Below, in pieces: positions 3,138 to 30,368 of a stretch of DNA of 33,319 nt. Each line of letters begins with the position of its first letter. Position 1 is the stretch's first letter. The notes beneath the pieces are model-generated. The model was not told where the DNA came from and did no database searches. It saw only the letters and a list, made by a program, of their open reading frames with translations. This DNA is from a virus (lineage: Duplodnaviria; Caudoviricetes), in the IMG/VR virus record IMGVR_UViG_3300017914_002862, positions 1-33,319 of that record. One strand, given 5' to 3'. A program made the position numbers and the translations under genes.

Positions 3138-4028
3138 ATGAAGCCCAGCAGAAAAATCTACAAATCAGGCGAATCTAAAGAGGATCGCAAAGCAAGACTA
3201 CACCAACAAAAAATAGCAGCAGGCGCCTATAGAGAAGGCGAAAACAAAGAACAGCGTAAAGCTAGACTTAAAAGAGAAAAGGGTGTTGTTGAACAAACAA
3301 AAAAATCGCAATCAAAAACTCAACCAACACCTAAACCAAAAAACAAACCTAGACCTGTAACAAACAACACTGCACAAAGAAGCATACCGCCTACAATTGA
3401 AAAGAAAATTGCAGAGCAACAATCTTATCCTACTGAAGATATTTCATTTGTGCTAGGTAACGGTACTAGTAGACGCAGTATTGATCCAAACGAACTGAAA
3501 CTACGTGGCACACTGTATGGTTGTAATGCACTTTACAGAACTTGTTCTCCGCATTATTTGATTGCAGTTGATACTAAAATGGTTAGAGAAATTTCAAATG
3601 CAGGTTATCAATTAAAGAACAGCACTTGGAGCAACCCTAACAAATACAGTAGAAGTATACAAGGATTAAACCTTTTTAATCCCAATTTAGGTTGGAGCAG
3701 TGGACCAACAGCACTGAATTTTGCAAGCATAAATGGCTCTAAAATCATCTATATTCTAGGATTCGATTATCAAGGATTAGGCAAAAAACATGAACTTGTC
3801 AACAACATGTATGCTGGTACTGAAAACTACAAACGTGAATCTGATAGAGCAACATATTTTGGTAATTGGCAAAGACAGACTTCTATGGTAATAAAACGAA
3901 ACCCATCAATTAGATATATAAGAGTGGTAGAAGATACAGAATATTTTACACCGGAGAATTTAGTAGGATTACCTAATCTTGAGCACATAACTATAGCAAA
4001 ATTTAAGAAAATTTTTAAATTATCCTAG
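3138..4028 (+). CDS. Lys/Arg-rich N-terminus fused to a CstII/GT42-, Maf/DUF115-like Rossmann-type sugar-transferase domain
   Basis: SD AAGGAG upstream. Motifs FVLGNGTSR...LYGCNALYR...LIAVD and WSSGPTAL...IYILGFDY match the GNGPS / CN / SG / IYL-G-D pattern of that fold. The N-terminus has a duplicated Y-x-x-GE-x-KE-x-RKARL motif. Confidence 0.6.
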   Translation: MKPSRKIYKSGESKEDRKARLHQQKIAAGAYREGENKEQRKARLKREKGVVEQTKKSQSKTQPTPKPKNKPRPVTNNTAQRSIPPTIEKKIAEQQSYPTEDISFVLGNGTSRRSIDPNELKLRGTLYGCNALYRTCSPHYLIAVDTKMVREISNAGYQLKNSTWSNPNKYSRSIQGLNLFNPNLGWSSGPTALNFASINGSKIIYILGFDYQGLGKKHELVNNMYAGTENYKRESDRATYFGNWQRQTSMVIKRNPSIRYIRVVEDTEYFTPENLVGLPNLEHITIAKFKKIFKLS

Positions 4029-6893: not shown

Positions 6894-8066
6894 ATGTCAG
6901 AACTATTAGAAAGTCGCTGGCAGGAGACCAAAGGTGCCCTAGTTGAAGGCCTATCAGGCAACAAAAAAGCTGTGATGGAGTCAACACTTGAAAACACTCG
7001 TCGCCACTTGATGGAGACAGCAACAGCGGGCGCAACTTCTGCAGGTAACGTAGCAACACTAAACCGTGTGATCCTTCCAGTGATCAGACGTGTTATGCCA
7101 ACAGTAATTGCAAACGACCTAGTTGGTGTTCAACCAATGACAGGTCCAGTGGGTCAGATCCACACACTACGTGTACGCTATGCGGACACAGCAGGTTCAG
7201 GTGCAGCAGGCGCGGTAACAGGCGAAGAAGCACTATCACCATTCAAAATTGCTGAAGCATATTCAGGTAACACTTCAGATGGTAAAGCAGACGCAACTGC
7301 GGCACTTGAAGGTGCAGCTGGTAACAGACTAAGCATCCAGATCTTGAAACAAACTGTTGAAGCGAAATCACGTAAGCTATCAGCACGTTGGACATTCGAG
7401 GCAGCACAGGACGCTCAGTCACAGCATGGTATTGATGTAGAAGCAGAAATCATGGCTGCTCTTGCACAAGAAATTACTGCTGAGATCGATCAAGAGGTTA
7501 TTAACTCATTGACAACATTAGCAGGTACAGGTTCAGAAACATACGACCAGTCAGGTGTTTCAGGTACAGCTACATTCGTTGGTGACGAACACGCAGCTCT
7601 TGCAGTTCAAATCAACCGTGTATCAAACTTGATTGCACAGCGTACACGCCGTGGCGCAGGTAACTGGGCAGTTGTTTCACCAACAATGCTAACAGTGCTA
7701 CAGTCAGCAACAACATCAGCGTTTGCACGTACAACAGAAGGCGCATTCGAAGCACCAACTAACACAAAAATGGTTGGTACATTGAACAACGCAATGAAAG
7801 TATATGTAAACACATATGCAGCAGACGATGACGTACTAGTTGGTTACAAAGGTACATCAGAATCAGACGCAGCAGCGTTCTACTGCCCATACATCCCATT
7901 GATGTCAAGCGGTGTTGTACTAGACCCAGATACATTCGAGCCAGTAGTTAGCTTCATGACACGTTATGGTTATGTCGAACTAACAAACACTGCATCGTCT
8001 TTGGGTAACGCAGCAGACTACCTAGGTAAAGTTGAAGTAACAACTTCAGCACTAAGCTTCACATAA
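6894..8066 (+). CDS. gp23: Major capsid protein (390 aa; true start at 6894, not 6849)
   Basis: SD TAAGGAG at 6881-6887 precedes the ATG at 6894. gp23 motifs VGVQPMTGPVGQIH, EAKSRKLSARWTFEAAQD, EITAEIDQE, FYCPYIPL and FMTRYG. Strongly biased codon usage. Confidence 0.97.
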   Translation: MSELLESRWQETKGALVEGLSGNKKAVMESTLENTRRHLMETATAGATSAGNVATLNRVILPVIRRVMPTVIANDLVGVQPMTGPVGQIHTLRVRYADTAGSGAAGAVTGEEALSPFKIAEAYSGNTSDGKADATAALEGAAGNRLSIQILKQTVEAKSRKLSARWTFEAAQDAQSQHGIDVEAEIMAALAQEITAEIDQEVINSLTTLAGTGSETYDQSGVSGTATFVGDEHAALAVQINRVSNLIAQRTRRGAGNWAVVSPTMLTVLQSATTSAFARTTEGAFEAPTNTKMVGTLNNAMKVYVNTYAADDDVLVGYKGTSESDAAAFYCPYIPLMSSGVVLDPDTFEPVVSFMTRYGYVELTNTASSLGNAADYLGKVEVTTSALSFT

Positions 8067-8083: not shown

Positions 8084-8112
8084 AAAATAGGCCCTCCGGG
8101 GCCTATTTTTTT
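8084..8112 (+). terminator. Rho-independent terminator after the capsid gene
   Basis: Perfect stem aaaataggccc / gggcctatttt with a C(UCCG)G UNCG-type loop and a T-tract. Confidence 0.92.
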
Positions 8113-8115
8113 GAG

Positions 8116-8121
8116 TAAATA
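8116..8121 (+). promoter_or_regulatory. Candidate late promoter core (TAAATA)
   Basis: Immediately after the terminator and before SD AAGGAG and the ATG at 8138. Confidence 0.6.
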
Positions 8122-8137: not shown

Positions 8138-8347
8138 ATGAAATTAGGTTCAGTATACAAATATAGTCCTAACAGGAAATATAATATTATTAGACCAAAA
8201 ACTTGGGGCAATACATTGGTAGACGTAATGTATCTTACTGCTGATTATCCTGATCTTAGACTTGGTGACACAGTAGAATATGTTTCAGAATTGAAAAATA
8301 AAAAAATTTATGCAACTTTTGTAAAAAAAGTTGAACAAACTGGTTGA
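8138..8347 (+). CDS. Divergent cold-shock-domain (OB-fold) protein, 69 aa
   Basis: SD AAGGAG supports a start at 8138 rather than 8111. Length and pattern (GSVYKY...KYNIIRP...VDVMY...LRLGDTVEY...YATFV) follow the CspA layout, with degenerate RNP1/RNP2 motifs. Confidence 0.55.
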   Translation: MKLGSVYKYSPNRKYNIIRPKTWGNTLVDVMYLTADYPDLRLGDTVEYVSELKNKKIYATFVKKVEQTG

Positions 8348-8372
8348 CCTTACTGTATTAATTTGCTATATT
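8344..8372 (+). promoter_or_regulatory. Sigma70-type promoter with extended -10
   Basis: TTGACC (8344-8349), 17-nt spacer ending TGC, then TATATT (8367-8372). Confidence 0.7.
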
Positions 8373-8378
8373 ATAAAC

Positions 8379-8600
8379 ATAACGAAGACGACGGTCCAAG
8401 TTAGATAGTGCAAGGAAACGATGCTTCACATAGGCATTAACTTGACTCATACGCTGTGGTGGCGCTGTAAGACTTTGGAGACAAAGAGTTGCAGACGAAA
8501 ATAGAATTAACCATTCTATTGTGAGGTTGTGCTAGTTATGTAGACAGGATATGTCACGGCACTTGTAGGTAATCCTTAGTCCTACCTATCACATTATTAG
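8379..8600 (+). ncRNA. Putative structured non-coding RNA of unknown family
   Basis: No ORF of 60 aa or more. Bounded by a promoter and a terminator. At least six helices are visible, including a long-range closing stem (8455-8462/8586-8593) and a GAGA tetraloop. Confidence 0.65.
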
Positions 8601-8602
8601 AG

Positions 8603-8634
8603 AAAGGTCTGTTATTTTTAACAGGCCTTTTTTT
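8603..8634 (+). terminator. Rho-independent terminator
   Basis: Stem aaaggtctgtta / taacaggccttt (one G-U pair), 4-nt loop, then a T-tract. Confidence 0.88.
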
Positions 8635-8665
8635 ATGACATTATAACCCATTTTTTCTTTTTTGA

Positions 8666-8671
8666 TAAATA
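8666..8671 (+). promoter_or_regulatory. Candidate late promoter core (TAAATA)
   Basis: gATAAATA about 65 nt upstream of the ATG at 8734. Confidence 0.65.
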
Positions 8672-8733
8672 CTTGTAGATAGATTTATGCGGTACCCGCC
8701 GCGTAGACCTAGAACGTCAAAGGAGATAAAACA

Positions 8734-9168
8734 ATGGGAAGACCAATTAACAAAGACAAAATTGGATACGGAACAGGACGTATCGCAGTAAGTCGTCACT
8801 TTTTTACAGGTGGTTCTGAAGCAGCAACAGCAGCACATATTGTAAGACAAGCAGGTAACAACAAATTTGTTGTACGTCTTGATTCAAACAATGATGGAAA
8901 TGGACCGTTCTCACCAAGATCACACGCAAGTGACGAGGTGTTGACACTAGTAAACAAAGCAGACGGTGCATTAGTAGCAGGTGAGTTTAAAATTGACGCT
9001 GTAGGTTCAGATTCAACAACTTATCAAGTTACAAAGTTGAAAAACAGAACCGTTCAAGTTGAAGGTAATGACAATGTTATCTATGGTATTGGTGCTGACA
9101 GAGATGGAGACGAGATTTCGGGTCATACGAACATGTCTTTATCAGTAAGCCTACCATCGCAATCATAA
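8734..9168 (+). CDS. Putative virion structural protein (144 aa)
   Basis: Late promoter, strong SD AAAGGAG and capsid-like codon bias. Beta-rich composition. Function not recognised. Confidence 0.7.
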   Translation: MGRPINKDKIGYGTGRIAVSRHFFTGGSEAATAAHIVRQAGNNKFVVRLDSNNDGNGPFSPRSHASDEVLTLVNKADGALVAGEFKIDAVGSDSTTYQVTKLKNRTVQVEGNDNVIYGIGADRDGDEISGHTNMSLSVSLPSQS

Positions 9169-18542: not shown

Positions 18543-21500
18543 ATGGCAACAAATATTAGACACAAGCGTAGTGCGGTCGCAGGCAAAATACCTACCGCTT
18601 CTCAATTACAATCTGGTGAATTAGCAATCAACACAGCAGACGGAAAAGTATTCTTGTTGCGTGACGATAACACAGTTCAAGACATTACAAATAGAGTTTT
18701 TGACAACGATACACAAATTCTTGTAGAAGACAAAGGCGATAGTAGTCAAGCTCAAATCAAAGTTGATGTCAATGGTTTTGAAAAAATAACCATTACTGAA
18801 CAAGAATTCAACATGAAAATGCCTTTGGACATGGAAAATGCCGAAGCTATTACATTTAGAGAACTTACTGCTTCTGGTCTAGACGGTGTTGAAATGAAAG
18901 CACCAGATAACTTGCCCGGCTCATATACCTTAACATTGCCTCTACAAACAGGTACAGTTGGCCAAGTTTTGAAAACAGATGGTAACGGACAGCTTGAATT
19001 TACAGATCCTGATATCTTTGGCGGTAATGTCGTTTATGTGTCTCAAGAACAAGGTGATGACGATAATGATGGACAAAGTGCTCCTGTTAAAACTGTAAAA
19101 CGTGCATGTCAAATTGCTTCAGGTTTGGTGTATAATACTGATGGTACACGTAACAATAGACGCATCAACATCAAAGTTGCCGTTGGTGATTATACTGAAG
19201 ATAACCCAGTGATTATTCCTGACAATGTTGTTGTTAAAGGTGACGGGTTGCGTGGATGTATTGTGCGACCTGCTAATGCTAACTTGGATATGTTCCGTGT
19301 ACGTAACGCATGTTACTTTGGTGAATTTACCTTTAGAGACGGTGTCGATGACAACTTTGTTCCATTGATTACATTCGACTATGCAACAGTGTTTGATGAT
19401 CCAGATGATCCAAACTGTTCACGTGAAGGATATACAAACCTACCAAATACGCAACCAACAATTGATACATCTCCGTATATTCAGAACGCTTCGATTATTT
19501 CATTCTTGGGTGGTAACGGTGCAAAAATTGACGGTGCAAAGATACAATCACCCAACGTTCCCCAGTTTGCTATTGAAGCTGAAAATCCAACAATTGGTGC
19601 TGTTCCTGAACAAGGTAAATCAATGGTTAGTAACGCTTACACCATGTTGTCGTTTGGTGGTACAGGTTGGCGACTATTAAATGATGCATACGCACAGATC
19701 GTTAGCTGCTTCCAAATCTTCATGCTTAACGGTGTTTACACGCAATCAGGCGGATATTGTTCAATTACTAACTCTGCTACCAACTTTGGTTTGTATGCAC
19801 TGCGTAGTAGTGGTTATTCACCTAAAGCATTTGTGTTCGACCGAGCATTTGTCACTAATACAGGTCAAAGTGAAGGTAAACAAACTGTCACTATTGCGGG
19901 TATCAATCGCGATGCACCAGTTGAAGAATTTGTTCTACGCTTTAGAGAACCAGGTTATAAGTATGCTCATGATATTATTACTAACAATATCAACAGTATT
20001 GCAGATGACACAGTTGATTGGATTCAAAATGAAATTGCCACTGCTTCGCCTAGTATATGGTCAGGGTTCACCTATGACGAAGCTAAATGTGGTAGAGACA
20101 CAAGATTACTGTTAGATGCTATTAGATATGACATTATTTTCAACAGTAACTACAGGACTGTAAGCGCAGCTCTGAGATACTTCAACGGTACATTTCCTAA
20201 CTTTGCTGATCAGAAGGATCAACACATTGAAGCGTTTGGTGAAGCAAAAACCTACACTGGAAACTATCTGAGTGACTCAACAGCTACCACTAGATCTAAT
20301 GCTTTGTGGGACGAAATCATTGATATTTTGACAAATGGTGATACAGATACAGTGCCAGGCGATGGTGTTGCAGATGCTTACACTCGTCCGGATCCAACTG
20401 GCGGCACAAACAATGCAAGCGATAGTGGATTTGCAAATGCACGTGATCAGATCTTTAACAACAAACTTTTCATGCAAAAAGAAATCACTGCATGGATTGC
20501 TGTTCAAGTATCAGAAGAAAATTCACCGTTTGATGAAACTTTTTCTTACAGTGTGTCACAGTGTGAAAATGACATTGGCTTGATTGTTGATGCATTGGTT
20601 TATGACTTGACGTATGGCGGTAATTTGCAAACTTATGATGCTGCACTAGCATACTTTGTAGGTACACAAGGACAACTTGCTGACGGACAAAAAGAAGAAA
20701 CTGTTGCTGCTTATGGAAGATTAAAAACCATACTAGGACAAATTGCCCAAGAACAAACAGTAACAAAATCAACTGGTAACACACAAACACAAGATACAAC
20801 TGCTGGAGTAGGTAGTGCAACAGCCGCAGCTAGAGCACAAACACTTATTCAACAAATCATTGATTATATTGACAATGATGGCGATGCAGATGAATCGGGT
20901 TTAACTCAAGAAACACCAGACCTAACATGGGTCTCAAGTAACGCAGAATATTCAGCTTACAATGAATTGGATGCTGAAGGACGTAAAAACATTGCACAAA
21001 ATGTTACACGATATATCAACACACAAATTCAAGCAAATCTATGGTACAACTTTGATTACGATGTTGAAAAATGTCGTAGAGATACAAAACTAATTGTTGA
21101 AGCTGTTGCTGACGATACATGGGATACAGGTAACAGATACACAAGAAACGCAGGTTTAGCATACTTTAACAAGAACTTGGCTGACTCATCTGAGATTACT
21201 ATCAGTGGTCAAGAACTACAAACTGAAGCAGCAATTCAACAAGCTGCTGTATACACAATTGCAACTATCACAGGCAAACCAGGTATTACAACAGATATTG
21301 AAGATTTTGTAAATGAAAGATTTGATATTGTCTCAAATGCTATTGTTGATCCAGGAGATATTCCAAATCCAACAGAAGTTAGCTCCGAGGGCGATGTAAC
21401 CAATGACTTTAAAGCGGCACCTGATGAACAAACATTTGATGCTGACGGAGACGTTGCAACTTCAACAGGTATTTTTACAATTGCAGATCACGGATATGCA

Positions 21501-24500
21501 AATGGTACAAAAGTAATCTACGACAGTAATGGCAATAATGATATTGGCGGACTTGAAAACGAAACAACCTACTATATTAAGATTATTAACGATGACGAAT
21601 TTACATTGACATTTGACGACAGTCTTGAGTTTGATGTGCAACTGTTTACTAATGTAACCAACAGTGGAACACACAAATTCTTAAGTGGTATTATTGAATT
21701 CTTTGTAGAAGAAGTTATTTCAAGTCATACTACTTATCAAACACTTATTTTAGAATCAGGTGCAGAATCATATGAATTTATTCCAGGACGTACTATTTCG
21801 GGTACAACTGGTGTTAACAATAACAGTGCTATTGTTACACAGTGGGAACCTGATTTAAGAAGACTTACTGTGAGCATTGAAGAAGTTACAGTTGGATCAA
21901 GTACATTACGTATTCAATTTGATACCAGCAGTACAATTACAAGTGACCATGCTGATACACCAAACTTGGCGATTTCATTGCTAGAAGTAGCAGCAAAAAC
22001 TGGCTTAGGTACAGCAACCTTCAGTATCACTGCAACTGACGGTTCAAGTAGTTTAACCAACTTGAGTGCCTTGCCTGAGAAACAGTGTTGGTTCCACAGA
22101 CCTAGTATTGTTAACTCATCATCACATACTTGGGAATATGCAGGTTCGGGTACAGACTATAACGCTCTACCACAAAACGGTGGTAATACTAGAACAGAAT
22201 ATGAACAATTTGAAGAACTACCAGGACGTGTGTATTCGTCAGGTACAAACGAACTTGGTGACTTTAAAGTTGGTGACTTTATTACAGCCTTTAACAGAAC
22301 TGGTAACATTACCTTTAGAAACAAAGTGCAGGTGGACGAACTTGATGCACTGCGTCTAAGTGTTAGTGATGTTGAAATTGAAGAAATCTCAACTGATGTA
22401 AACTTAGGTGACAACGAACAAGGTGGTGCAAGCGATAATAGACTTTCTACACAGCTTGCAGTGCGTAGCTTTATTTCAAACAGACTAGGTGGGTTTGTTG
22501 ACAAGTCAGTTTCAACTGCTGCTGTTCCTGGTGCCATTGTACAACTTAACGTAAACGGACAGTTGAATGCTGACTTGATTCCAGCTACTAGACAGTTTAC
22601 AAACACAAATACCAATGGATATCAATCAAGACTTCTACAAGTAGAAGATGTTCCTCCTGTAGATTTGAAAGCTGGAGATATTGGTACAGAAAATTATGAA
22701 CAGGTTGAACTTACACTAAGTGGTAATATCTCTGCTAATGATGGCGATATTATTACACAACCTGGTGTAGCAGGTGCAAGAGCTTATGCAAAAGGTGATT
22801 TTCCTAACAGTAACACAGTCTTGGTTGTGACCACAGGTGCAGCATGGGACGACAACGAAGACAGTACAGGTGATCCTTGGGAAATCGGCGCCGGCAATAT
22901 TTTCGTCAATGGTGTTGACTCTGGTGAGAATGTTACGTCAAAAGGTGCAAGCACTGCAATCGTAGATAACTGGTTCTTAAAAAGTTCAAACAGTAGTCAG
23001 TATCTAGTTGTTGACAATGACGAAGACTACAATTTTACATTTGTGGCTATTGCAACAGCACGCCGTACAAATGATGTAATGACAGTCCAAACAGCAACTA
23101 ATCACAATTTAAAAGTAAACAACAATGTTGCTGTTCGTATTACTGGTCAAGATACATTTACTCAAAACGGATTGGTCCAAAGTGTAATTGACAGTAGAAC
23201 ATTCACAATTAACAACACCGGCGACGATTCATTATTGTTGACTGGTATTACAGGTACAGTTGAAACTATTGTAACCAGTGCTGACGGGGATGCTCAAGGT
23301 AAAGTCACAGATTTCCGAGAAGGCATGCTAGTAGGTGTTGACAATGCTAATATCACAGGTGGTAGTGGTTATACACCTACTACTGGTAGTAAAATATACG
23401 CAGATGTACCTATGATTGCAAACACTGGTAGTGGTACTGGTGCTAGAGCAAACATCACTGTTACAGCTGGTGCAATCACTGATGTTGACTTGATTAGAAG
23501 CGGCACTGGATATGCACAAGGCGATCTAGTATCAGTAGATCCTGTAGATCTAGCAGGAGACAGTGCAGGTAGTGGATTTGAAATTGAAGTAACTTCAACT
23601 GAAAAACGCATTTATGTAGATATTATCGGCGGTACGTTGTTTGTTGCAAGTACATCAAGCCAAGACTTTGTTGAAGACAATGATGCAATTGATGAAGCTC
23701 GTGTAATCAACTTAGATGATCAAATCAGTCACAACTTCTTAGCAGGTTCTAGTGATGCTAGTGGTAATGTAGACTATACAGATAGCAGAATTGAAATCAC
23801 TAATCATGGTTTATCAAACGGTGATCCAGTCAAATATGACACACTAGGCGGTGTTGCTATTGGAGGATTGGTCAACGGCGAAGTTTACTATGTAAAATAT
23901 TATGATGCAAACACACTTGAACTGTTTGACGATTATGATCTAGATACAAAAATAACATTTAGCAGCACACCGGCAAACACTAACCATAACATTACAAGAT
24001 TTACAGTTAATATTATTGACAACAGTATTGTTGTAACAAATCATGGGTTCTCTACAGGTGATGCGATTAGGCTTGAAACATTGAGCGATGGTTCTACAAC
24101 AAACGGATTACCGAGTATCACAAACAATGATGATCCTATCGCTACAGGTTCAAGATTCTTTATTGGTAGTGTAACAGACAACTCATTTACATTGCACAAT
24201 TTGCGTTCTGACGCATTGAGCAGTGTAAACGGATTAGCCACACTACCAGTAGATTTAGATACAACTGGTGTAGGTAGTGCCCAGGTTATCTTGAACAATA
24301 CAAAAGTCAGCACAGTTGTTAACACTTCGAGTAGATTGATTGCAAACTGGAACACATTGGCTGTTACTAACATTGACGCAGAAAACATAATCTCTGGTGT
24401 AATCTCTCCGAGTAGACTTGCACTAGCAGGTATTGCTAACAGTGATAGTGCATTGTTTGGTGATAGTAGTTATAAAACAGTTGTACAAAGTTTGAAAAAA

Positions 24501-27500
24501 GCAACCACAACTGACAACCCAATTACACTTACAGGTTCAAGCGTTGGCGGAGAATTTTATGGCGATCCAGTAAATATTGGTATTGCTAATACAGACTTTG
24601 TCATTGGTGGTACATTCTCAACTTTAGGTGTGTCAAAATTCTTGCAAACACAATTTGAAGTTGCTGACGATGCAAGCGGTGAAGTATTCATCAAAGATGG
24701 TGTTGTAGATGCAGGTACACTGGATAGTTTGGATAGTTCGTACTTCCTTAACCCTGCTAACCTTACAAGCCTAGTGCCTGTAAGTAGAGGTGGTACAGCA
24801 ATTGGTACATATGCTGTAGGTGATATTCTATATGCTCAATCAACCGGTAGTTTAAATACACTAAACATTGGTAGAGCAAATACTTTCTTAAAATCAAGTG
24901 GTACAGTTCCTGAATGGGGTACTGCACTTGATCTTGCTGAAGGACTAGATGTTGGTTCAGCTAAACTAACATCAACAAGCACATCAATAGGTCAAGTTTA
25001 CAATACATCAGTTACAACACTAGAACTAGGCGGCGAAGCTGACAATGTTAAAATTGGTAAAGCAGGTGACAACAGAGATATTTCAAGTTTTGTTGCAAAT
25101 TACGATGGTACAGCAACACAAGATGTTGCTGTAAATTTAGCACAAGTTTCAGCAGATACAAGTGAAGCTAGTGACAATGGCGAAAATGTTCTTCTGTTCT
25201 CAGCTGATGATATTAGTGATATTACATTTGGTATGACAGTAAGCGGTAGTGGTAGTATTCCTGCAAACACAACAGTTAGTGGTGTTACAGAAACAGAAGT
25301 TTTCTTGAGTAACGATCTTACTGGTAATGTTTTGACAACAACTACTATTACATTTACGTATTCACCACTGACACTAGGTGTTAGAGAAGGCGACGAAATT
25401 ACCATCGCAGGTAGTGGTGTGACAAACTTAGACGGTACATGGCCAGTAAGCGGTGCAACAGAAAATGCAACCAGTTTCACAGTGCGTACAGATGCAAACG
25501 TCACTGCTGATGAAGTTTCAAGAGCAGGCACAATTGTAAAAGAAAATAGTATCTTATTTAGAAATGAAGAGGTTGTGTTTGGTAGTGCGATCAACAGTGA
25601 CAATCCACAAGACGCTTTACTTAGAGGTGAAAGCGGTCTAGGCACTGACGTAGGTGGTGGTGCAATTGTATTGCAAGCTGGTACTGGTACAGGTAATGCT
25701 ACTGGTGGCGACATTGTGATGAAAACTGGTGAAGTTAGCACAACCAGTGACATTAGACAAACACAAACTGAAAGAGTGCGTATTGATACTGAAGGTATCA
25801 TGACTGTAAATGGATATACCACATTTACTGATACCACAGGTATAAAAATTCCAGTAGGAACAACTGCACAACGTCCAGGTGGTTCAGGAATATATGTATC
25901 AGCTGCACAAGGTCAAATACGTTATAATACAAGCGACAGTACATTTGAAGGATTCGATGGAACCAACTGGGGTTCACTAGGTGGTGTTAAAGATGTTGAT
26001 CAAGATACATTTATTAGACCTGAAACCACAGCAGGTGCAGACAACGATGAATTAGAATTCTTCACAGCTGGCACAGAACGTATGCAAATTGGTGCAACAG
26101 GTGATCTTGGCTTTGGTGATGGACTAACAAAATTTACAGTTGCGTATTCAACAGGTAACACTGACATTGCAGGTAACTTGACAGTTACAGGTAACCTTAC
26201 TGTTGAAGGCACTACAACGACAATTGATACAGCAACATTGATTGTTGAGGATAAAAATATTGAACTTGGTAATGTTGCTACACCAACTGATACAACAGCA
26301 GATGGCGGCGGTATTACACTGAAAGGTACAACAGATCATACATTCAATTGGGTAAATTCAACCGATGCTTGGACAAGTAGTGATCATATTAATCTAGCCA
26401 GTGGTAAAGAATATTATATCAACGGATTTAGTGTGCTAACAAGCACAACACTTGGTTCAGCAGTGATCAATAGTAGTCTGCAAGGCACAGGTGCATTGAA
26501 TGCAGGTAGTATCACAGACGGCTTTGGCGCTATTGATATTGGCAGTTCAAACCTAACTGCCACTGGAACTGTAACATTGGGTGCTACAAGTTTTGGCGAC
26601 AACAACATAACCAATGTTGGTAGCATTGCATTAGATACAATCAGTGGTGACAACGGGTCAAGTATGAACTTTGCAAGTTCTACACAAGTAAACGTTGATA
26701 ATACAACACAAGCAACCTCAACAACTACAGGTGCATTGATTGTAGATGGTGGCGTAGGTATTGTTAAAAACTTACATGTTGGCGGGACACTAACTGGTAA
26801 CGGTAGCGGATTAACAACACTAAATGCAAGCAACTTGTCAAGTGGCACAGTTAACGATGCAAGATTACCAACAAGCCAAGCAGGCAAAACATTTACCAGT
26901 GATATTACTGTAAATGGATTTAGAATTGGTCAAGGTGCTCTTGCTGAAACCAGTAACTTGGTTGTTGGTGGCGGCGGTAGCATAACAACTGGTGCACAAA
27001 ACAACACAGGTGTAGGGTCAGGATCATTTGCTGGTGCTATTTCAGGAGACAATAACACTGCATTAGGTTATGTTGCACTAAGTGCTTTGACAACTACATC
27101 AAACAACACAGCAATTGGTGCAAACAGCCAAGAACAACGTGTAGGAAGTGGTAGCAAAAACACCAGTGTTGGTTCGTCTACTATGAGCAACAGTACACAG
27201 GGTGATGACAACGTTGCTATTGGTTATCAAGCACTTGAAATTGTTACAGGTAACCAAAACACCGTAGTTGGTTCACAAAGTGGTAGTGCACTATCAAGCG
27301 GTAGTAATAACATTATTATTGGTTATAATATTGAATTGCCAACCAACACAACCAGCAACTATATTCAACTTGGTAACACCAGTTCAGCAAACTTGAACAT
27401 TCCTGGTATTAATCTTAGTGCAAATGCAACAACATTGACATACAGTGGTACTGGAGGCTTTGCTGGTGTAGGTACTTCTTTAACAGCATTGAACGCAACA

Positions 27501-29174
27501 CAGCTTACCAGCGGCACTGTGCCTGATGCACGTATTTCACAGACAAGTGTTACACAACACGAGACTGCAATTGATGCTGTTGGAACACTAAACGGTGGTG
27601 CGATCAGTTCAGGATTTGGAAACATTGACATTGGAACAAGCAACCTTACAGCAACTGGTACAGTTAGCTTGGGTACAACCAGCTTCAATGATAATAATAT
27701 AACAAATGTAGGACAAATCAATCTAGATACTATTGCAGCAGACGTGAATGCTACAGGAATTAATTTTGATAGTGGTGCAATTGTAACATTTGACAATGTG
27801 ACTCAAGCAACAACAACAAGCAACGGTTCTGTTAGAATGCTGGGCGGTTTGAGTGTTGCTAAAAACATTCAGTTAGGTGGAACCATTACAGGTAATGGTA
27901 GTGGACTTACAACACTGAATGCAAGTAACTTGTCTAGTGGTACTGTACCAAGTGCAAGAGTCAGTGGTAGTTACACAGGTATTCTTGGAACAGGCGCACT
28001 AAACGCAGGACAAATTACCAGCGGCTTTGGTGATATCAACATTGGTACAAACACATTCACTGGTAACGGTAGTGGTTTAACAAATGTTGATGCTACAACT
28101 CTAGATGGAATTGATAGTTCAGCGTTCTTGCGTAGTAATGCAAATGATACATTTACTGGATTGCTAACTGGTAATAGAAACTCAAACGAACAAATTAGAC
28201 TTGCTACACAAAGTTCAACTGGTTCACCATATTTGAGTTTCTATCAAGCAGGAACACGCAGAGGCTATATTCAATATGTCAACGGCGGCGCAATGCGTAT
28301 CTTCAATGACAGAACTGATGAATATCTAGATATCAACAGTGGTGCTAATGGGTTAACTTATACAGTTAGCGGAGCAGCAACTTACACAGTATGGCATGCA
28401 GGTAACGATGGAACTGGAAGTGGCCTAGATGCTGATACACTAGACGGTGTTCAGGGTAGTGCATTCCTTCGCAGCAATGCAAACGACAGCTTCAGTGGAA
28501 CACTCAGTGGTGCTGGTAGTATCAATATTACAGGCAATGTTACAGCAGCCGCATTCACAGGAGACGGTAGTGCTCTAACTGGTATCAGTGCTGATGATGC
28601 TGATTCACTTGGAGGTGTTGCAGCTAGTGGATATTTACGTAGTAACGCAGCAGATCAAAAAACATCTGGAACTTTAAGATTCAATGACAATGTTCAATTG
28701 AACTTTGGTACAGGAAATGATGCTGAAATTTATCACAACGGTTCGCATTTGTATTTTGATATGAACGCTGATGACGATATTATCTTTAGAGACGGTAATA
28801 ACAGTAATGCAACTAGATTTACATTTGATACAAGTGCAGGTAGCTTTACAGCTACAGGAGAAATTACAGCTTACTCAGATGCAACACTGAAAGATAATGT
28901 TGAGCTGATTGTTGATCCGTTGAAAAAGATTTTGAGTGTTAGAGGTGTAACCTTTACACGTACAGATCTTCCAGACACTGAAACAAGACACATGGGTGTG
29001 ATTGCGCAAGAGATTGAAGAACACTTCCCAGAAGTTGTAAACACAAATGAAGAGTCTGGTATTAAAACTGTTAACTATGGAGCAATGGCAGGTGTGTTTA
29101 TTGAAGCATTCAAAGATCAGCAACGTCAAATCGACGAGTTGAAAGACATGGTTCAAAAATTGTTGAATAAATAA
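18543..29174 (+). CDS. Giant tail fibre protein (3543 aa) with C-terminal peptidase S74 intramolecular chaperone
   Basis: N-terminal RHKRSAVAGKIP...GELAINTADGKVF fibre anchor. Beta-helix-like domain paralogous to the upstream gene. Three Cys repeats, NHG-x-x-x-GD beta modules, YadA-like NTA(I/L)G repeats and LDG...FLRSNAND repeats. C-terminal AYSDATLKDNV...GVIAQEIE...VNYG plus coiled coil (S74, from ~28875). Confidence 0.9.
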   Translation: MATNIRHKRSAVAGKIPTASQLQSGELAINTADGKVFLLRDDNTVQDITNRVFDNDTQILVEDKGDSSQAQIKVDVNGFEKITITEQEFNMKMPLDMENAEAITFRELTASGLDGVEMKAPDNLPGSYTLTLPLQTGTVGQVLKTDGNGQLEFTDPDIFGGNVVYVSQEQGDDDNDGQSAPVKTVKRACQIASGLVYNTDGTRNNRRINIKVAVGDYTEDNPVIIPDNVVVKGDGLRGCIVRPANANLDMFRVRNACYFGEFTFRDGVDDNFVPLITFDYATVFDDPDDPNCSREGYTNLPNTQPTIDTSPYIQNASIISFLGGNGAKIDGAKIQSPNVPQFAIEAENPTIGAVPEQGKSMVSNAYTMLSFGGTGWRLLNDAYAQIVSCFQIFMLNGVYTQSGGYCSITNSATNFGLYALRSSGYSPKAFVFDRAFVTNTGQSEGKQTVTIAGINRDAPVEEFVLRFREPGYKYAHDIITNNINSIADDTVDWIQNEIATASPSIWSGFTYDEAKCGRDTRLLLDAIRYDIIFNSNYRTVSAALRYFNGTFPNFADQKDQHIEAFGEAKTYTGNYLSDSTATTRSNALWDEIIDILTNGDTDTVPGDGVADAYTRPDPTGGTNNASDSGFANARDQIFNNKLFMQKEITAWIAVQVSEENSPFDETFSYSVSQCENDIGLIVDALVYDLTYGGNLQTYDAALAYFVGTQGQLADGQKEETVAAYGRLKTILGQIAQEQTVTKSTGNTQTQDTTAGVGSATAAARAQTLIQQIIDYIDNDGDADESGLTQETPDLTWVSSNAEYSAYNELDAEGRKNIAQNVTRYINTQIQANLWYNFDYDVEKCRRDTKLIVEAVADDTWDTGNRYTRNAGLAYFNKNLADSSEITISGQELQTEAAIQQAAVYTIATITGKPGITTDIEDFVNERFDIVSNAIVDPGDIPNPTEVSSEGDVTNDFKAAPDEQTFDADGDVATSTGIFTIADHGYANGTKVIYDSNGNNDIGGLENETTYYIKIINDDEFTLTFDDSLEFDVQLFTNVTNSGTHKFLSGIIEFFVEEVISSHTTYQTLILESGAESYEFIPGRTISGTTGVNNNSAIVTQWEPDLRRLTVSIEEVTVGSSTLRIQFDTSSTITSDHADTPNLAISLLEVAAKTGLGTATFSITATDGSSSLTNLSALPEKQCWFHRPSIVNSSSHTWEYAGSGTDYNALPQNGGNTRTEYEQFEELPGRVYSSGTNELGDFKVGDFITAFNRTGNITFRNKVQVDELDALRLSVSDVEIEEISTDVNLGDNEQGGASDNRLSTQLAVRSFISNRLGGFVDKSVSTAAVPGAIVQLNVNGQLNADLIPATRQFTNTNTNGYQSRLLQVEDVPPVDLKAGDIGTENYEQVELTLSGNISANDGDIITQPGVAGARAYAKGDFPNSNTVLVVTTGAAWDDNEDSTGDPWEIGAGNIFVNGVDSGENVTSKGASTAIVDNWFLKSSNSSQYLVVDNDEDYNFTFVAIATARRTNDVMTVQTATNHNLKVNNNVAVRITGQDTFTQNGLVQSVIDSRTFTINNTGDDSLLLTGITGTVETIVTSADGDAQGKVTDFREGMLVGVDNANITGGSGYTPTTGSKIYADVPMIANTGSGTGARANITVTAGAITDVDLIRSGTGYAQGDLVSVDPVDLAGDSAGSGFEIEVTSTEKRIYVDIIGGTLFVASTSSQDFVEDNDAIDEARVINLDDQISHNFLAGSSDASGNVDYTDSRIEITNHGLSNGDPVKYDTLGGVAIGGLVNGEVYYVKYYDANTLELFDDYDLDTKITFSSTPANTNHNITRFTVNIIDNSIVVTNHGFSTGDAIRLETLSDGSTTNGLPSITNNDDPIATGSRFFIGSVTDNSFTLHNLRSDALSSVNGLATLPVDLDTTGVGSAQVILNNTKVSTVVNTSSRLIANWNTLAVTNIDAENIISGVISPSRLALAGIANSDSALFGDSSYKTVVQSLKKATTTDNPITLTGSSVGGEFYGDPVNIGIANTDFVIGGTFSTLGVSKFLQTQFEVADDASGEVFIKDGVVDAGTLDSLDSSYFLNPANLTSLVPVSRGGTAIGTYAVGDILYAQSTGSLNTLNIGRANTFLKSSGTVPEWGTALDLAEGLDVGSAKLTSTSTSIGQVYNTSVTTLELGGEADNVKIGKAGDNRDISSFVANYDGTATQDVAVNLAQVSADTSEASDNGENVLLFSADDISDITFGMTVSGSGSIPANTTVSGVTETEVFLSNDLTGNVLTTTTITFTYSPLTLGVREGDEITIAGSGVTNLDGTWPVSGATENATSFTVRTDANVTADEVSRAGTIVKENSILFRNEEVVFGSAINSDNPQDALLRGESGLGTDVGGGAIVLQAGTGTGNATGGDIVMKTGEVSTTSDIRQTQTERVRIDTEGIMTVNGYTTFTDTTGIKIPVGTTAQRPGGSGIYVSAAQGQIRYNTSDSTFEGFDGTNWGSLGGVKDVDQDTFIRPETTAGADNDELEFFTAGTERMQIGATGDLGFGDGLTKFTVAYSTGNTDIAGNLTVTGNLTVEGTTTTIDTATLIVEDKNIELGNVATPTDTTADGGGITLKGTTDHTFNWVNSTDAWTSSDHINLASGKEYYINGFSVLTSTTLGSAVINSSLQGTGALNAGSITDGFGAIDIGSSNLTATGTVTLGATSFGDNNITNVGSIALDTISGDNGSSMNFASSTQVNVDNTTQATSTTTGALIVDGGVGIVKNLHVGGTLTGNGSGLTTLNASNLSSGTVNDARLPTSQAGKTFTSDITVNGFRIGQGALAETSNLVVGGGGSITTGAQNNTGVGSGSFAGAISGDNNTALGYVALSALTTTSNNTAIGANSQEQRVGSGSKNTSVGSSTMSNSTQGDDNVAIGYQALEIVTGNQNTVVGSQSGSALSSGSNNIIIGYNIELPTNTTSNYIQLGNTSSANLNIPGINLSANATTLTYSGTGGFAGVGTSLTALNATQLTSGTVPDARISQTSVTQHETAIDAVGTLNGGAISSGFGNIDIGTSNLTATGTVSLGTTSFNDNNITNVGQINLDTIAADVNATGINFDSGAIVTFDNVTQATTTSNGSVRMLGGLSVAKNIQLGGTITGNGSGLTTLNASNLSSGTVPSARVSGSYTGILGTGALNAGQITSGFGDINIGTNTFTGNGSGLTNVDATTLDGIDSSAFLRSNANDTFTGLLTGNRNSNEQIRLATQSSTGSPYLSFYQAGTRRGYIQYVNGGAMRIFNDRTDEYLDINSGANGLTYTVSGAATYTVWHAGNDGTGSGLDADTLDGVQGSAFLRSNANDSFSGTLSGAGSINITGNVTAAAFTGDGSALTGISADDADSLGGVAASGYLRSNAADQKTSGTLRFNDNVQLNFGTGNDAEIYHNGSHLYFDMNADDDIIFRDGNNSNATRFTFDTSAGSFTATGEITAYSDATLKDNVELIVDPLKKILSVRGVTFTRTDLPDTETRHMGVIAQEIEEHFPEVVNTNEESGIKTVNYGAMAGVFIEAFKDQQRQIDELKDMVQKLLNK
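19960..21360 (+). repeat. Three further copies of the Cys-containing helical repeat
   Basis: KCGRDTRLLLDA (Cys codon at 20088), QCENDIGLIVDA (20562) and KCRRDTKLIVEA (21072). Confidence 0.9.
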
Positions 29175-29391: not shown

Positions 29392-29775
29392 ATGAAATCT
29401 TTGTTTGAAGTTATTAATATCGACTTGGCACAAGAATATACAAAAGAACGTAAACTTGCAAAACTAGATAGTATTGCAACAGAAGTTGGTCCAACACTAG
29501 AAGCAGAAGCAAAAGAAGCTATTGCTGCAATGGATATTCCTGAAAGTGACGAACGCTTTCATTGGATTCAAAAACTTGGTCGTGCAATGGGAGCAGATTT
29601 GCTTACCATTGGTAAAGTACAACCAGAAAATATGATTGCAGCATCAGCACTTTCAGTTGAAGATTTTCAAGAAGCTGTAAAGGTAGCAGTCAAGGGTGCA
29701 AATGATTTGAATCAATGGACTGTTGCAGCAGAAAGAGCAATTGCACAAGACACAATTTCTGAAAAAATTGTATGA
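29392..29775 (+). CDS. Hypothetical helical protein (127 aa)
   Basis: SD AGGAG. ATGA overlap with the next gene. Confidence 0.8.
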   Translation: MKSLFEVINIDLAQEYTKERKLAKLDSIATEVGPTLEAEAKEAIAAMDIPESDERFHWIQKLGRAMGADLLTIGKVQPENMIAASALSVEDFQEAVKVAVKGANDLNQWTVAAERAIAQDTISEKIV

Positions 29776-30368
29776 CAAAAATAGCAATATGTGTTCCTGC
29801 TAGAGACACAGTTCATGCAGGATTTGCACTAGGGTTATCCAAGGTAGTTGAACAACTTGTAAAGACCAACATTGAACACGAGGTATTGTTTAATCTTGGT
29901 ACTGTTTTACCTGACCAAAGAAATACCCTTGTAAAAGATGCAATACGTATTGGTGCTACACACATATTGTGGTTAGACAGTGACATTCATGTGCCTGCAA
30001 GTGTTGTACACACATTGTTGTCACACGATAGAGAAATTGTAGCTGCTGCATACAGCACTAGGATGCCTCCGTACAACAGTGTTGCATTTACAGATAAAGA
30101 CGATTTAAACAAACGTCTTGATGCTTCAAGAGGCTTGCACAGTGTATGGGCAGTAGGAATGGGATGTATGCTTGTAGATACTGAAGTTTACAAATATTTA
30201 GGCCAACCTTGGCATAATTACGAATACAACCAACCTACTGAAAGTTTAACTGGCGAAGATATATACTTTTGTAACAACGCAAACAGTGCAGGTATTCCAG
30301 TTCATGTTGATGCAACACTGAGCCAAGAAATAGCACACTACGGAACAAAATCATTTAAACTAGGTTAA
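29772..30368 (+). CDS. GT2-like (GT-A fold) glycosyltransferase
   Basis: KIAICVPARD, QRNTLV, THILWLDSD (DxD motif), VGMGCMLV, GEDIYFC and a late HYG. Confidence 0.85.
   Translation: MTKIAICVPARDTVHAGFALGLSKVVEQLVKTNIEHEVLFNLGTVLPDQRNTLVKDAIRIGATHILWLDSDIHVPASVVHTLLSHDREIVAAAYSTRMPPYNSVAFTDKDDLNKRLDASRGLHSVWAVGMGCMLVDTEVYKYLGQPWHNYEYNQPTESLTGEDIYFCNNANSAGIPVHVDATLSQEIAHYGTKSFKLG

Follow-up and report, generated by a model that had tools for sequence, protein, structure and literature searches.

A Divergent manA RNA Framed by a Predicted Promoter and Terminator behind the Capsid Gene of a T4-Like Jumbo Phage

Introduction

What is made from a stretch of phage DNA that lies behind a capsid gene, begins with a host-type promoter, ends in a terminator and holds no substantial open reading frame (ORF)? 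This question is raised by 33,319 nt of viral DNA (IMG/VR record IMGVR_UViG_3300017914_002862), hereafter the window, which is a fragment of a T4-like jumbo phage genome with an estimated completeness of 9%. The structural genes in this 33.3-kb window code for a portal, a prohead protease, a major capsid protein and two giant tail proteins (phrog, Pfam). By capsid protein the closest isolates are the jumbo phages Sinorhizobium phage Phosso, Vibrio phage 2.275.O and Cronobacter phage GAP32 (64–71% identity). A preliminary description, made from the letters of the DNA, had proposed that the segment behind the capsid gene specifies an independently transcribed, multi-branched RNA of a family that its reader did not recognize. 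Here we report that this segment is a real RNA gene and that it is a divergent member of a known orphan family, manA (RF01745), and not a new family.

The manA motif was described in 2010 by Weinberg et al., who placed it in 5′ UTRs as a likely cis-regulatory element (PMC2864571). This reading is repeated in PMC9964418, and in the parts considered of PMC7779021 and 10.1101/2020.02.04.933952, the manA content concerns an alignment only. Our literature search, with most subscription journals outside its range, returned no manA paper that describes a stand-alone gene or a function.

Results

Homologues were collected from viral sequences by capsid similarity and by pattern. The capsid search brought in 80 viral loci, of which 22 have a homologue downstream of gp23; a model built from 54 copies (R1) finds the same 22. 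The pattern scan covered 120 of ~610 stretches; since its pattern fixes GTGCWAGGAA, AACTWG and KGTRGT, invariance at these letters follows from the search. The collection holds at least 104 distinct full-length copies, or 56 after collapsing near-duplicates of ≥90% identity. One copy with a deleted 3′ half (L088) was left out of the covariation tests, and one with a long P6 insert (L156) was left out of the 54-row alignment A2.

Table 1. Features at and around the RNA gene (positions in the window; helices and loops numbered as in the text)
Feature	Position	Strand	Remarks
Major capsid protein gene, gp23-like	6894..8066	+	PF07068 E 7e-102; phrog_138
Terminator-like hairpin + U-run, 3′ of capsid gene	8084..8112	+	sequence reading
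69-aa ORF, predicted cold-shock (OB) fold	8138..8347	+	
Sigma70-type promoter, TTGACC-17-TATATT, extended −10 TG	8344..8372	+	predicted start ~8379
Predicted primary transcript, ~255 nt	8379..8634	+	ends placed from promoter and terminator positions
manA-type structured RNA, divergent subfamily	8381..8595	+	RF01745 1–192 of 192, 53.9 bits, E 6.1e-13
P1 hairpin, GACG loop	8381..8402	+	80% paired; GACG in 31/55
P2 closing helix, GAUAG 8404–8408 / CUAUC 8586–8590	8404..8590	+	93% paired, two-sided changes in 4/5 pairs
P3, CAAG 8411–8414 / CUUG 8441–8444, A-rich internal loop (GAAA-CG / UAA), distal stem, L3	8411..8444	+	
P4, ACUCAUA 8445–8451 / UGUGAGGU 8520–8527, closes P5/P6/P7 junction	8445..8527	+	99.5% paired
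P5 + loop L5; UGGU 8457–8460 complementary to L7	8452..8464	+	
P6, GAGA (GNRA) tetraloop L6 at 8478–8481	8465..8494	+	GAGA or GAAA in 49/55
P7 + loop L7; ACCA 8510–8513 complementary to L5	8501..8519	+	88% paired
P8 + loop L8; AGGAU 8546–8550 complementary to L9	8529..8562	+	
P9 + loop L9; AUCCU 8572–8576 complementary to L8	8565..8585	+	100% paired
Intrinsic-terminator-like hairpin + U-run	8603..8634	+	11 nt behind RNA body
GATAAATA late-promoter-like motif for next gene	8664..8671	+	only 4 on window + strand
Freshwater-2-like leader RNA (RF02980), separate	8669..8736	+	38 bits, below 49.9 cut-off, E 3.6e-4

The elements that frame the RNA are present as first described (Table 1). The promoter comprises TTGACC (8344–8349), a 17-nt spacer, the extended −10 dinucleotide TG (8364–8365) and TATATT (8367–8372), and matches at 10/12 positions. 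The terminator consists of a hairpin (8603–8627; −14.9 kcal/mol) and a U-run to 8634; it is absent from the output of a simple terminator scanner. The longest reading frame between them has 27 codons (8421–8504), in line with the claim that no substantial ORF lies here. Among the matches listed, a promoter of at least 9/12 stands at the same place in 82/104 homologues, compared with 27/400 random window positions, and a terminator directly behind the RNA in 60/104, compared with 5/400. Both elements occur together in 58/104 listed copies, and in 24/56 at <90% identity, versus 3/400 random positions. The terminator was undetected in 44 of these 104 matches, 11 run directly into a ribosome-binding site and an ATG start codon without a terminator, and eight lie within 60 nt of a tRNA.

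A search of the whole window with Rfam at the gathering cut-off returned nothing, and manA emerged in E-value mode. The cmscan run suggested in the preliminary description was thus empty at its default setting and still named the family. Since the exact window sequence, at 53.9 bits, lies 1.3 below the RF01745 gathering cut-off of 55.2, we file it as a divergent variant and not as a canonical manA member. None of 14 control genomes gave a match to RF01745. Among the 22 gp23-linked copies 17 match this model, seven of them above the cut-off (55.7–79.9 bits), and three of the five without a match are cut by contig ends. From the listed matches of the pattern scan, 36 further copies were picked; 28 match and 19 exceed the cut-off. 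A copy with three differences from the window sequence (L100) scores 55.5 bits, above the cut-off. In the reverse test, model R1 detected the annotated manA of cyanophage S-CREM1 (57.1 bits, E 1.9e-17), which is 55% identical to the window RNA (125/229 columns). At E up to 10, Rfam gave 11 matches, none to models of known self-cleaving ribozymes, group I or II introns, RNase P, tmRNA or tRNA, and ARAGORN found 0 genes. With a match over the whole model and reciprocal detection, the family that had gone unrecognized is a known one, and we are nearly certain that this RNA belongs to the manA lineage.

The window RNA shares with RF01745 a GACG-capped P1, the closing helix P2, a GUG junction, a GUGGUG loop, a GNRA arm, a UAACCA loop and a terminal UUG..GGU hairpin; T4-like phage carriers and copies beside tRNAs are likewise common to both. 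The two differ most clearly in the P3 internal loop, which reads CAAGGAA...AACUUG here and ACUGAAUAAAC...UAAGGU in the consensus. P3 thus departs from the Rfam consensus, and its invariance in A2 is partly a product of the search pattern. Conserved unpaired purines occur in P3 and in the junctions. Published manA RNAs sit in the 5′ UTRs of mannose, nucleotide, ibpA or photosynthesis genes and are carried by cyanophages, whereas the present RNA has its own promoter and terminator, and its carriers are jumbo phages, relatives of Mimasvirus-like isolates.

The covariation check supports a multi-branched fold in the registers of manA. Across the 54 homologues of A2, 87.7% of the cells in this fold are paired versus 66.0% in shuffles (0/500 as high), 45 of the 56 pairs show two-sided changes, and 660 cells carry such changes versus 222 in shuffles. 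The covariation score of the consensus helices P1–P9 is 0.559, compared with 0.180 for shuffles and at most 0.132 for slid controls; an unbiased ranking by mutual information also places the manA helices at the top. In P4, two-sided changes affect 6/7 pairs. The same 54 homologues bear out four arms of the preliminary description, ctgtaa/ttgcag with its GAGA cap (P6), aatagaat/attctatt (P7), gtgct/ggcac (P8) and gtagg/cctac (P9). Its long-range pairings did not hold: the 5′ helix caagttag (8397–8404)/ttaacttg (8437–8444) is paired in 58% of cells, the closing helix tgtggtgg (8455–8462)/ctatcaca (8586–8593) in 63% and the pseudoknot tcctt/aagga in 41%, and covariation favours in their place the pairs of P2, P3 and P4 (Table 1) and, as partner of the last loop, AGGAU (8546–8550). 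Taken jointly, these three pairings reach 56.5% versus 57.8% in shuffles, of which 489/500 are as high.

The wrong registers can be understood because the minimum free energy (MFE) fold (−56.5 kcal/mol) predicts one of the three rejected pairings, the closing helix 8455–8462/8586–8593, and the nested manA fold (−44.6 kcal/mol) is ~12 kcal/mol less stable on paper. Given this lower stability of the nested fold, tertiary contacts must matter. The region 8379–8640 folds at z −3.87 (0/200 shuffles as low) and the opposite strand at z only +0.33, consistent with the plus-strand sense claimed. Without the terminator z is only −1.61 (9/200 shuffles), so the case for structure rests on covariation.

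Loops L5 and L7 as well as L8 and L9 are complementary. At least four Watson–Crick pairs can form between L8 and L9 in 30/55 copies versus 20% after permutation (0/2000), and Watson–Crick pairing of L5 with L7 was found in 36/55 copies versus 47% after permutation (0/2000; not significant with G–U pairs allowed, 329/2000). These permutations take no account of kinship, and more weight falls on how many independent L8–L9 versions there are. At least nine compensated ones occur: AGGAU/AUCCU, CUGAU/AUCAG, GAGAG/UUCUC, CAGA/UCUG, AUGAU/AUCAU, GUGG/UCAC, UGGU/ACCA, UGCU/AGCG and UGGAAU/AUUCCA. The manA of S-CREM1 keeps a 6-bp L8–L9 complementarity in other letters. L5–L7 becomes UAGU/ACUA in one branch, and the pair 8458–8512 changes from G–C to A–U in 12/54 copies. 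Such covariation is equally compatible with contacts within one molecule and between molecules. L3 and L5 (8427–8431, 8455–8458) are complementary as well: positions 8428 and 8455 co-vary (95% canonical), and at least four pairs can form in 44/55 copies. In the GGUGGUA subtype, L3 (UACCA) matches L8 (UGGUA), as in the L3–L8′ contact of the decamer-forming manA type. The L3–L5 and L3–L8 complementarity may reflect subtype structure.

We then come to the question of whether this RNA is a gene of its own or the leader of the next one. In folds of the whole transcript, the terminator hairpin forms in 56/58 listed copies with both promoter and terminator. An antiterminator was sought in these 58 copies; the 5′ arm of the terminator pairs with the RNA as in shuffles (mean z +0.21), and among the matches listed z falls below −2 in 1/58 and this pairing is stronger than the hairpin in 1/58. 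The terminator sequences vary freely among copies. Within 80 nt past the terminator 49/58 listed copies carry ATAAATA; this motif and GATAAATA are what we take to be T4-type late promoters. Instead of a 5′ UTR placement before a metabolic gene, we find here a terminator 11 nt behind the RNA and a next gene with its own late-promoter motif and leader. The manA of S-CREM1 is wedged between tRNA-Leu and tRNA-Asn, and copies beside tRNAs would also release a free RNA. Layout and covariation agree with the proposed separate transcription unit, a multi-branched plus-strand noncoding RNA between a host-type promoter and a terminator, and the RNA is very probably a stand-alone transcript.

We examined eight RNA libraries from six studies, of 23 runs. 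All eight have contigs on the RNA, with exact pieces of 118, 137 and 85 nt in three; these data are contigs and report presence only, carrying no strand, ends or level. Some contigs of relatives cross the promoter or run 17 nt past the terminator. The contigs leave the 69-aa ORF uncovered, and for the most part the 144-aa ORF too; relatives may simply differ at these places, so this does not argue for a discrete transcript. One contig, from run X4, skips 8427–8642 and other contigs replace 8448–8523; both kinds are likely to come from other phages.

On a gp23 tree of 64 rows, the presence of the RNA demands at least eight gains or losses on well-supported branches, and 12 on the best tree. The slot runs from the capsid terminator to the following late promoter; it lacks the RNA in 41/64 close relatives and accommodates other inserts as well, including the 69-aa ORF. 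The two sequence subtypes of the RNA are interleaved on the tree. This patchy distribution is the pattern of a dispensable, exchangeable accessory cassette. Of the 88 listed copies that came from the pattern scan alone, 42 have gp23 within the retrieved flank. In L088 the 3′ half of manA is deleted (~1200–1400) and the remainder is fused to a freshwater-2-like leader, likely a route of loss.

The RNA has no blastn match among 50,697 records of isolate phages. RF01745 and R1 applied to Phosso, 2.275.O, GAP32, PA5oct and XbC2 found no credible copy, with S-CREM1 detected as a positive control; one match of 15 bits (E 0.003) occurred among these five related isolated jumbo phages. A pattern scan of 185,579 prokaryote genomes yielded six stretches, four of them real copies by R1 and all on contigs of metagenome-assembled genomes (MAGs). 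Two of these adjoin gp23, so that the MAG copies appear to be phage DNA swept into the bins and do not point to a host. An identical gp23-plus-manA locus stands on 153- and 335-kb contigs of one bacterial MAG bin (L237, L239); it is likely jumbo phage DNA in the bin and not a chromosomal copy.

The 69-aa ORF has a TAAATA late-promoter-like motif at 8116, and it ends with a stop codon that shares positions with the −35 box of the RNA promoter. By itself it gave no Pfam match and no PDB sequence match; 6/9 members of its family match PF00313 weakly, and its AlphaFold model (pLDDT 88.5) resembles CspA, CspB and YB-1 at TM 0.67–0.78 (CspA ~0.75), with no E < 0.001. In many close relatives the ORF stands immediately 5′ of the RNA promoter, and each is also found without the other. 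We rejected the cold-shock-fold ORF as an obligate partner of the RNA: it occurs in 11/45 records of the gp23 search, eight with the RNA and three without, and loci such as L006, L026, L031, L035, L036 and L061 have the RNA and lack the ORF.

Downstream, the freshwater-2-like leader, a second conserved RNA, precedes a 144-aa gene (8734–9168), behind the GATAAATA motif. Its core TAGAAC follows 38/58 terminators among the matches listed, and the leader is common in relatives without manA; a literature search for "freshwater-2" found nothing. The spacer 8635–8663 (30 nt, beginning ACATTATAACCC) is conserved between terminator and late-promoter motif in L008, L010, L015, L017 and others, and contains a minus-strand TATAAT box (8668–8640, 10/12), a possible antisense promoter facing the RNA. 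Elsewhere in the window, weak glycosyltransferase-like matches lie amid structural genes at 3138–4028 and 29772–30368 on the plus strand (sialyltransferase phrog_4603; Anp1), and 18543–29174 (+) codes for a 3543-aa tail-fibre-like protein with a C-terminal Peptidase_S74 intramolecular chaperone domain, adjoining a tail-fibre-like protein of 2603 aa.

Discussion

Cryo-EM of manA variants has revealed octamers, decamers and a 60-mer T=1 cage built from pentamers, which are held by L5–L7′ with L8–L9′ contacts, or by L5–L7′ and L3–L8′ with an L6 GNRA contact (bioRxiv 10.64898/2026.07.01.735769). These assemblies were made in vitro at ~3 mg/mL. In the parts of the preprint considered here, manA is still a putative cis-regulatory element, and neither an in vivo function nor an analysis of genomic context is given. 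The 60-mer former manA_A0F1 has complementary L5–L7 and L8–L9 loops, as does the window RNA if our mapping of the loop numbering is correct, and manA_pho34_A767 uses the GNRA loop L6, which is GNRA here too. The imaged RNAs have structures, whereas the present subfamily is known from sequence (215 nt plus terminator); the constructs of the preprint may include it already. By this analogy, L5–L7 and L8–L9 are likely to be the contact surfaces through which manA pentamers and cages are built. GOLLD, ROOL, OLE and ARRPOF, summarized in the same preprint, are ornate orphan RNAs of phages and bacteria that form RNA-only multimers; they are several hundred nucleotides longer, and their Rfam models give no match here.

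We lean slightly towards the view that the locus is a self-contained manA cassette, whose ~255-nt free RNA, made by the host sigma70 polymerase, is predicted to build pentamer-based scaffold or decoy particles through its loops. The host polymerase would produce this RNA soon after entry, and the RNA would fold around P2 and P4, presenting L5, L7, L8, L9 and the GNRA loop. These two steps, the free RNA and its fold, are well supported. Copies could then join by L5–L7 and L8–L9 kisses into pentamers and closed particles, the contacts in trans being taken from cryo-EM of other manA RNAs; oligomerization through these loops seems reasonably probable to us. Inside the cell such a particle might serve as a stable multivalent scaffold or decoy that binds a host factor, a guess we offer tentatively, with the odds rather against it.

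The same loop and helix covariation fits a stand-alone monomer with L5–L7 and L8–L9 as intramolecular pseudoknots, a compact RNA that works in trans, either as a ribozyme or by binding a metabolite or protein. The conserved unpaired purines would suit a pocket, and monomer maps have been deposited for two manA variants (bioRxiv 10.64898/2026.07.01.735769), but both contacts are intermolecular in the cryo-EM structures of that preprint, L8 and L9 sit on neighbouring hairpins, the Rfam matches at E up to 10 include no known ribozyme, and nothing points to catalysis. We therefore regard the monomer as doubtful. Control of the terminator, and hence of the 144-aa gene, by a cis-regulatory leader or riboswitch appears improbable. 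Riboswitches often have a terminator directly behind the aptamer, and the 11/104 listed copies that lead into a ribosome-binding site and ATG without a terminator are in keeping with such control. The published 5′ UTR placement (PMC2864571) agrees with it as well, yet the 58 copies show no antiterminator signal and let their terminator sequences vary, the gene that follows carries a late-promoter motif (49/58 among the matches listed) and a leader RNA of its own, and both S-CREM1 manA and 8/104 listed copies adjoin tRNAs (the latter within 60 nt).

Still less probable is a role like that of prohead RNA, in which an RNA pentamer on the five-fold capsid or portal vertex would aid assembly or packaging. 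The phi29 prohead RNA, a phage RNA of ~170–220 nt, multimerizes into rings by loop–loop pairing, and the present RNA stands directly behind the portal, protease, scaffold and capsid genes (gp23 in the flank of 42/88 copies among the matches listed). Pentamers formed through loop–loop contacts are also known for manA (bioRxiv 10.64898/2026.07.01.735769). In contrast, the phi29 RNA is essential and ours is patchy: the slot lacks the RNA in 41/64 close relatives, and none was found in five related isolated jumbo phages. Moreover, copies are also found in tRNA clusters, well away from head genes, the promoter is of host and not of late type, and the two RNAs share no sequence or model match. As for conservation due to the 27-codon ORF, whose ATG at 8421 is preceded by AGGA, or a structure that arose by chance, the probability is close to nil. 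Both are refuted, by covariation (660 cells with two-sided changes versus 222 in shuffles, and z +0.33 on the opposite strand) and by a start codon that occurs in its column in 15/104 listed copies only, with frames of 6–37 codons.

Returning to the cassette that makes scaffold or decoy particles, a bolder version, which we think unlikely to be right in full, would have marine jumbo phages swap a one-gene, RNA-only nanocage cassette. Transcribed by the host polymerase as infection begins, the RNA would carry lineage-specific loop codes and assemble into pentamer-based shells that act on a host factor as a trap or a scaffold, possibly with the neighbouring cold-shock-fold protein as chaperone. 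With nine or more L8–L9 versions, RNAs of different phages would then not co-assemble, and manA RNAs would be particle RNAs mislabelled as riboswitch candidates.

The manA family is already known, and the five nearest isolates checked include no cultured carrier of this subfamily. The motif has counted as an orphan riboswitch candidate from 2010 onwards, and the 2026 preprint showed RNA-only cages and, in the parts considered, gave no role. The bracketing promoter and terminator speak for the RNA itself as the product, which turns the hunt for a ligand into a search for a partner. The natural compensatory loop pairs can serve both to distinguish contacts in cis from contacts in trans and to design RNA particles.
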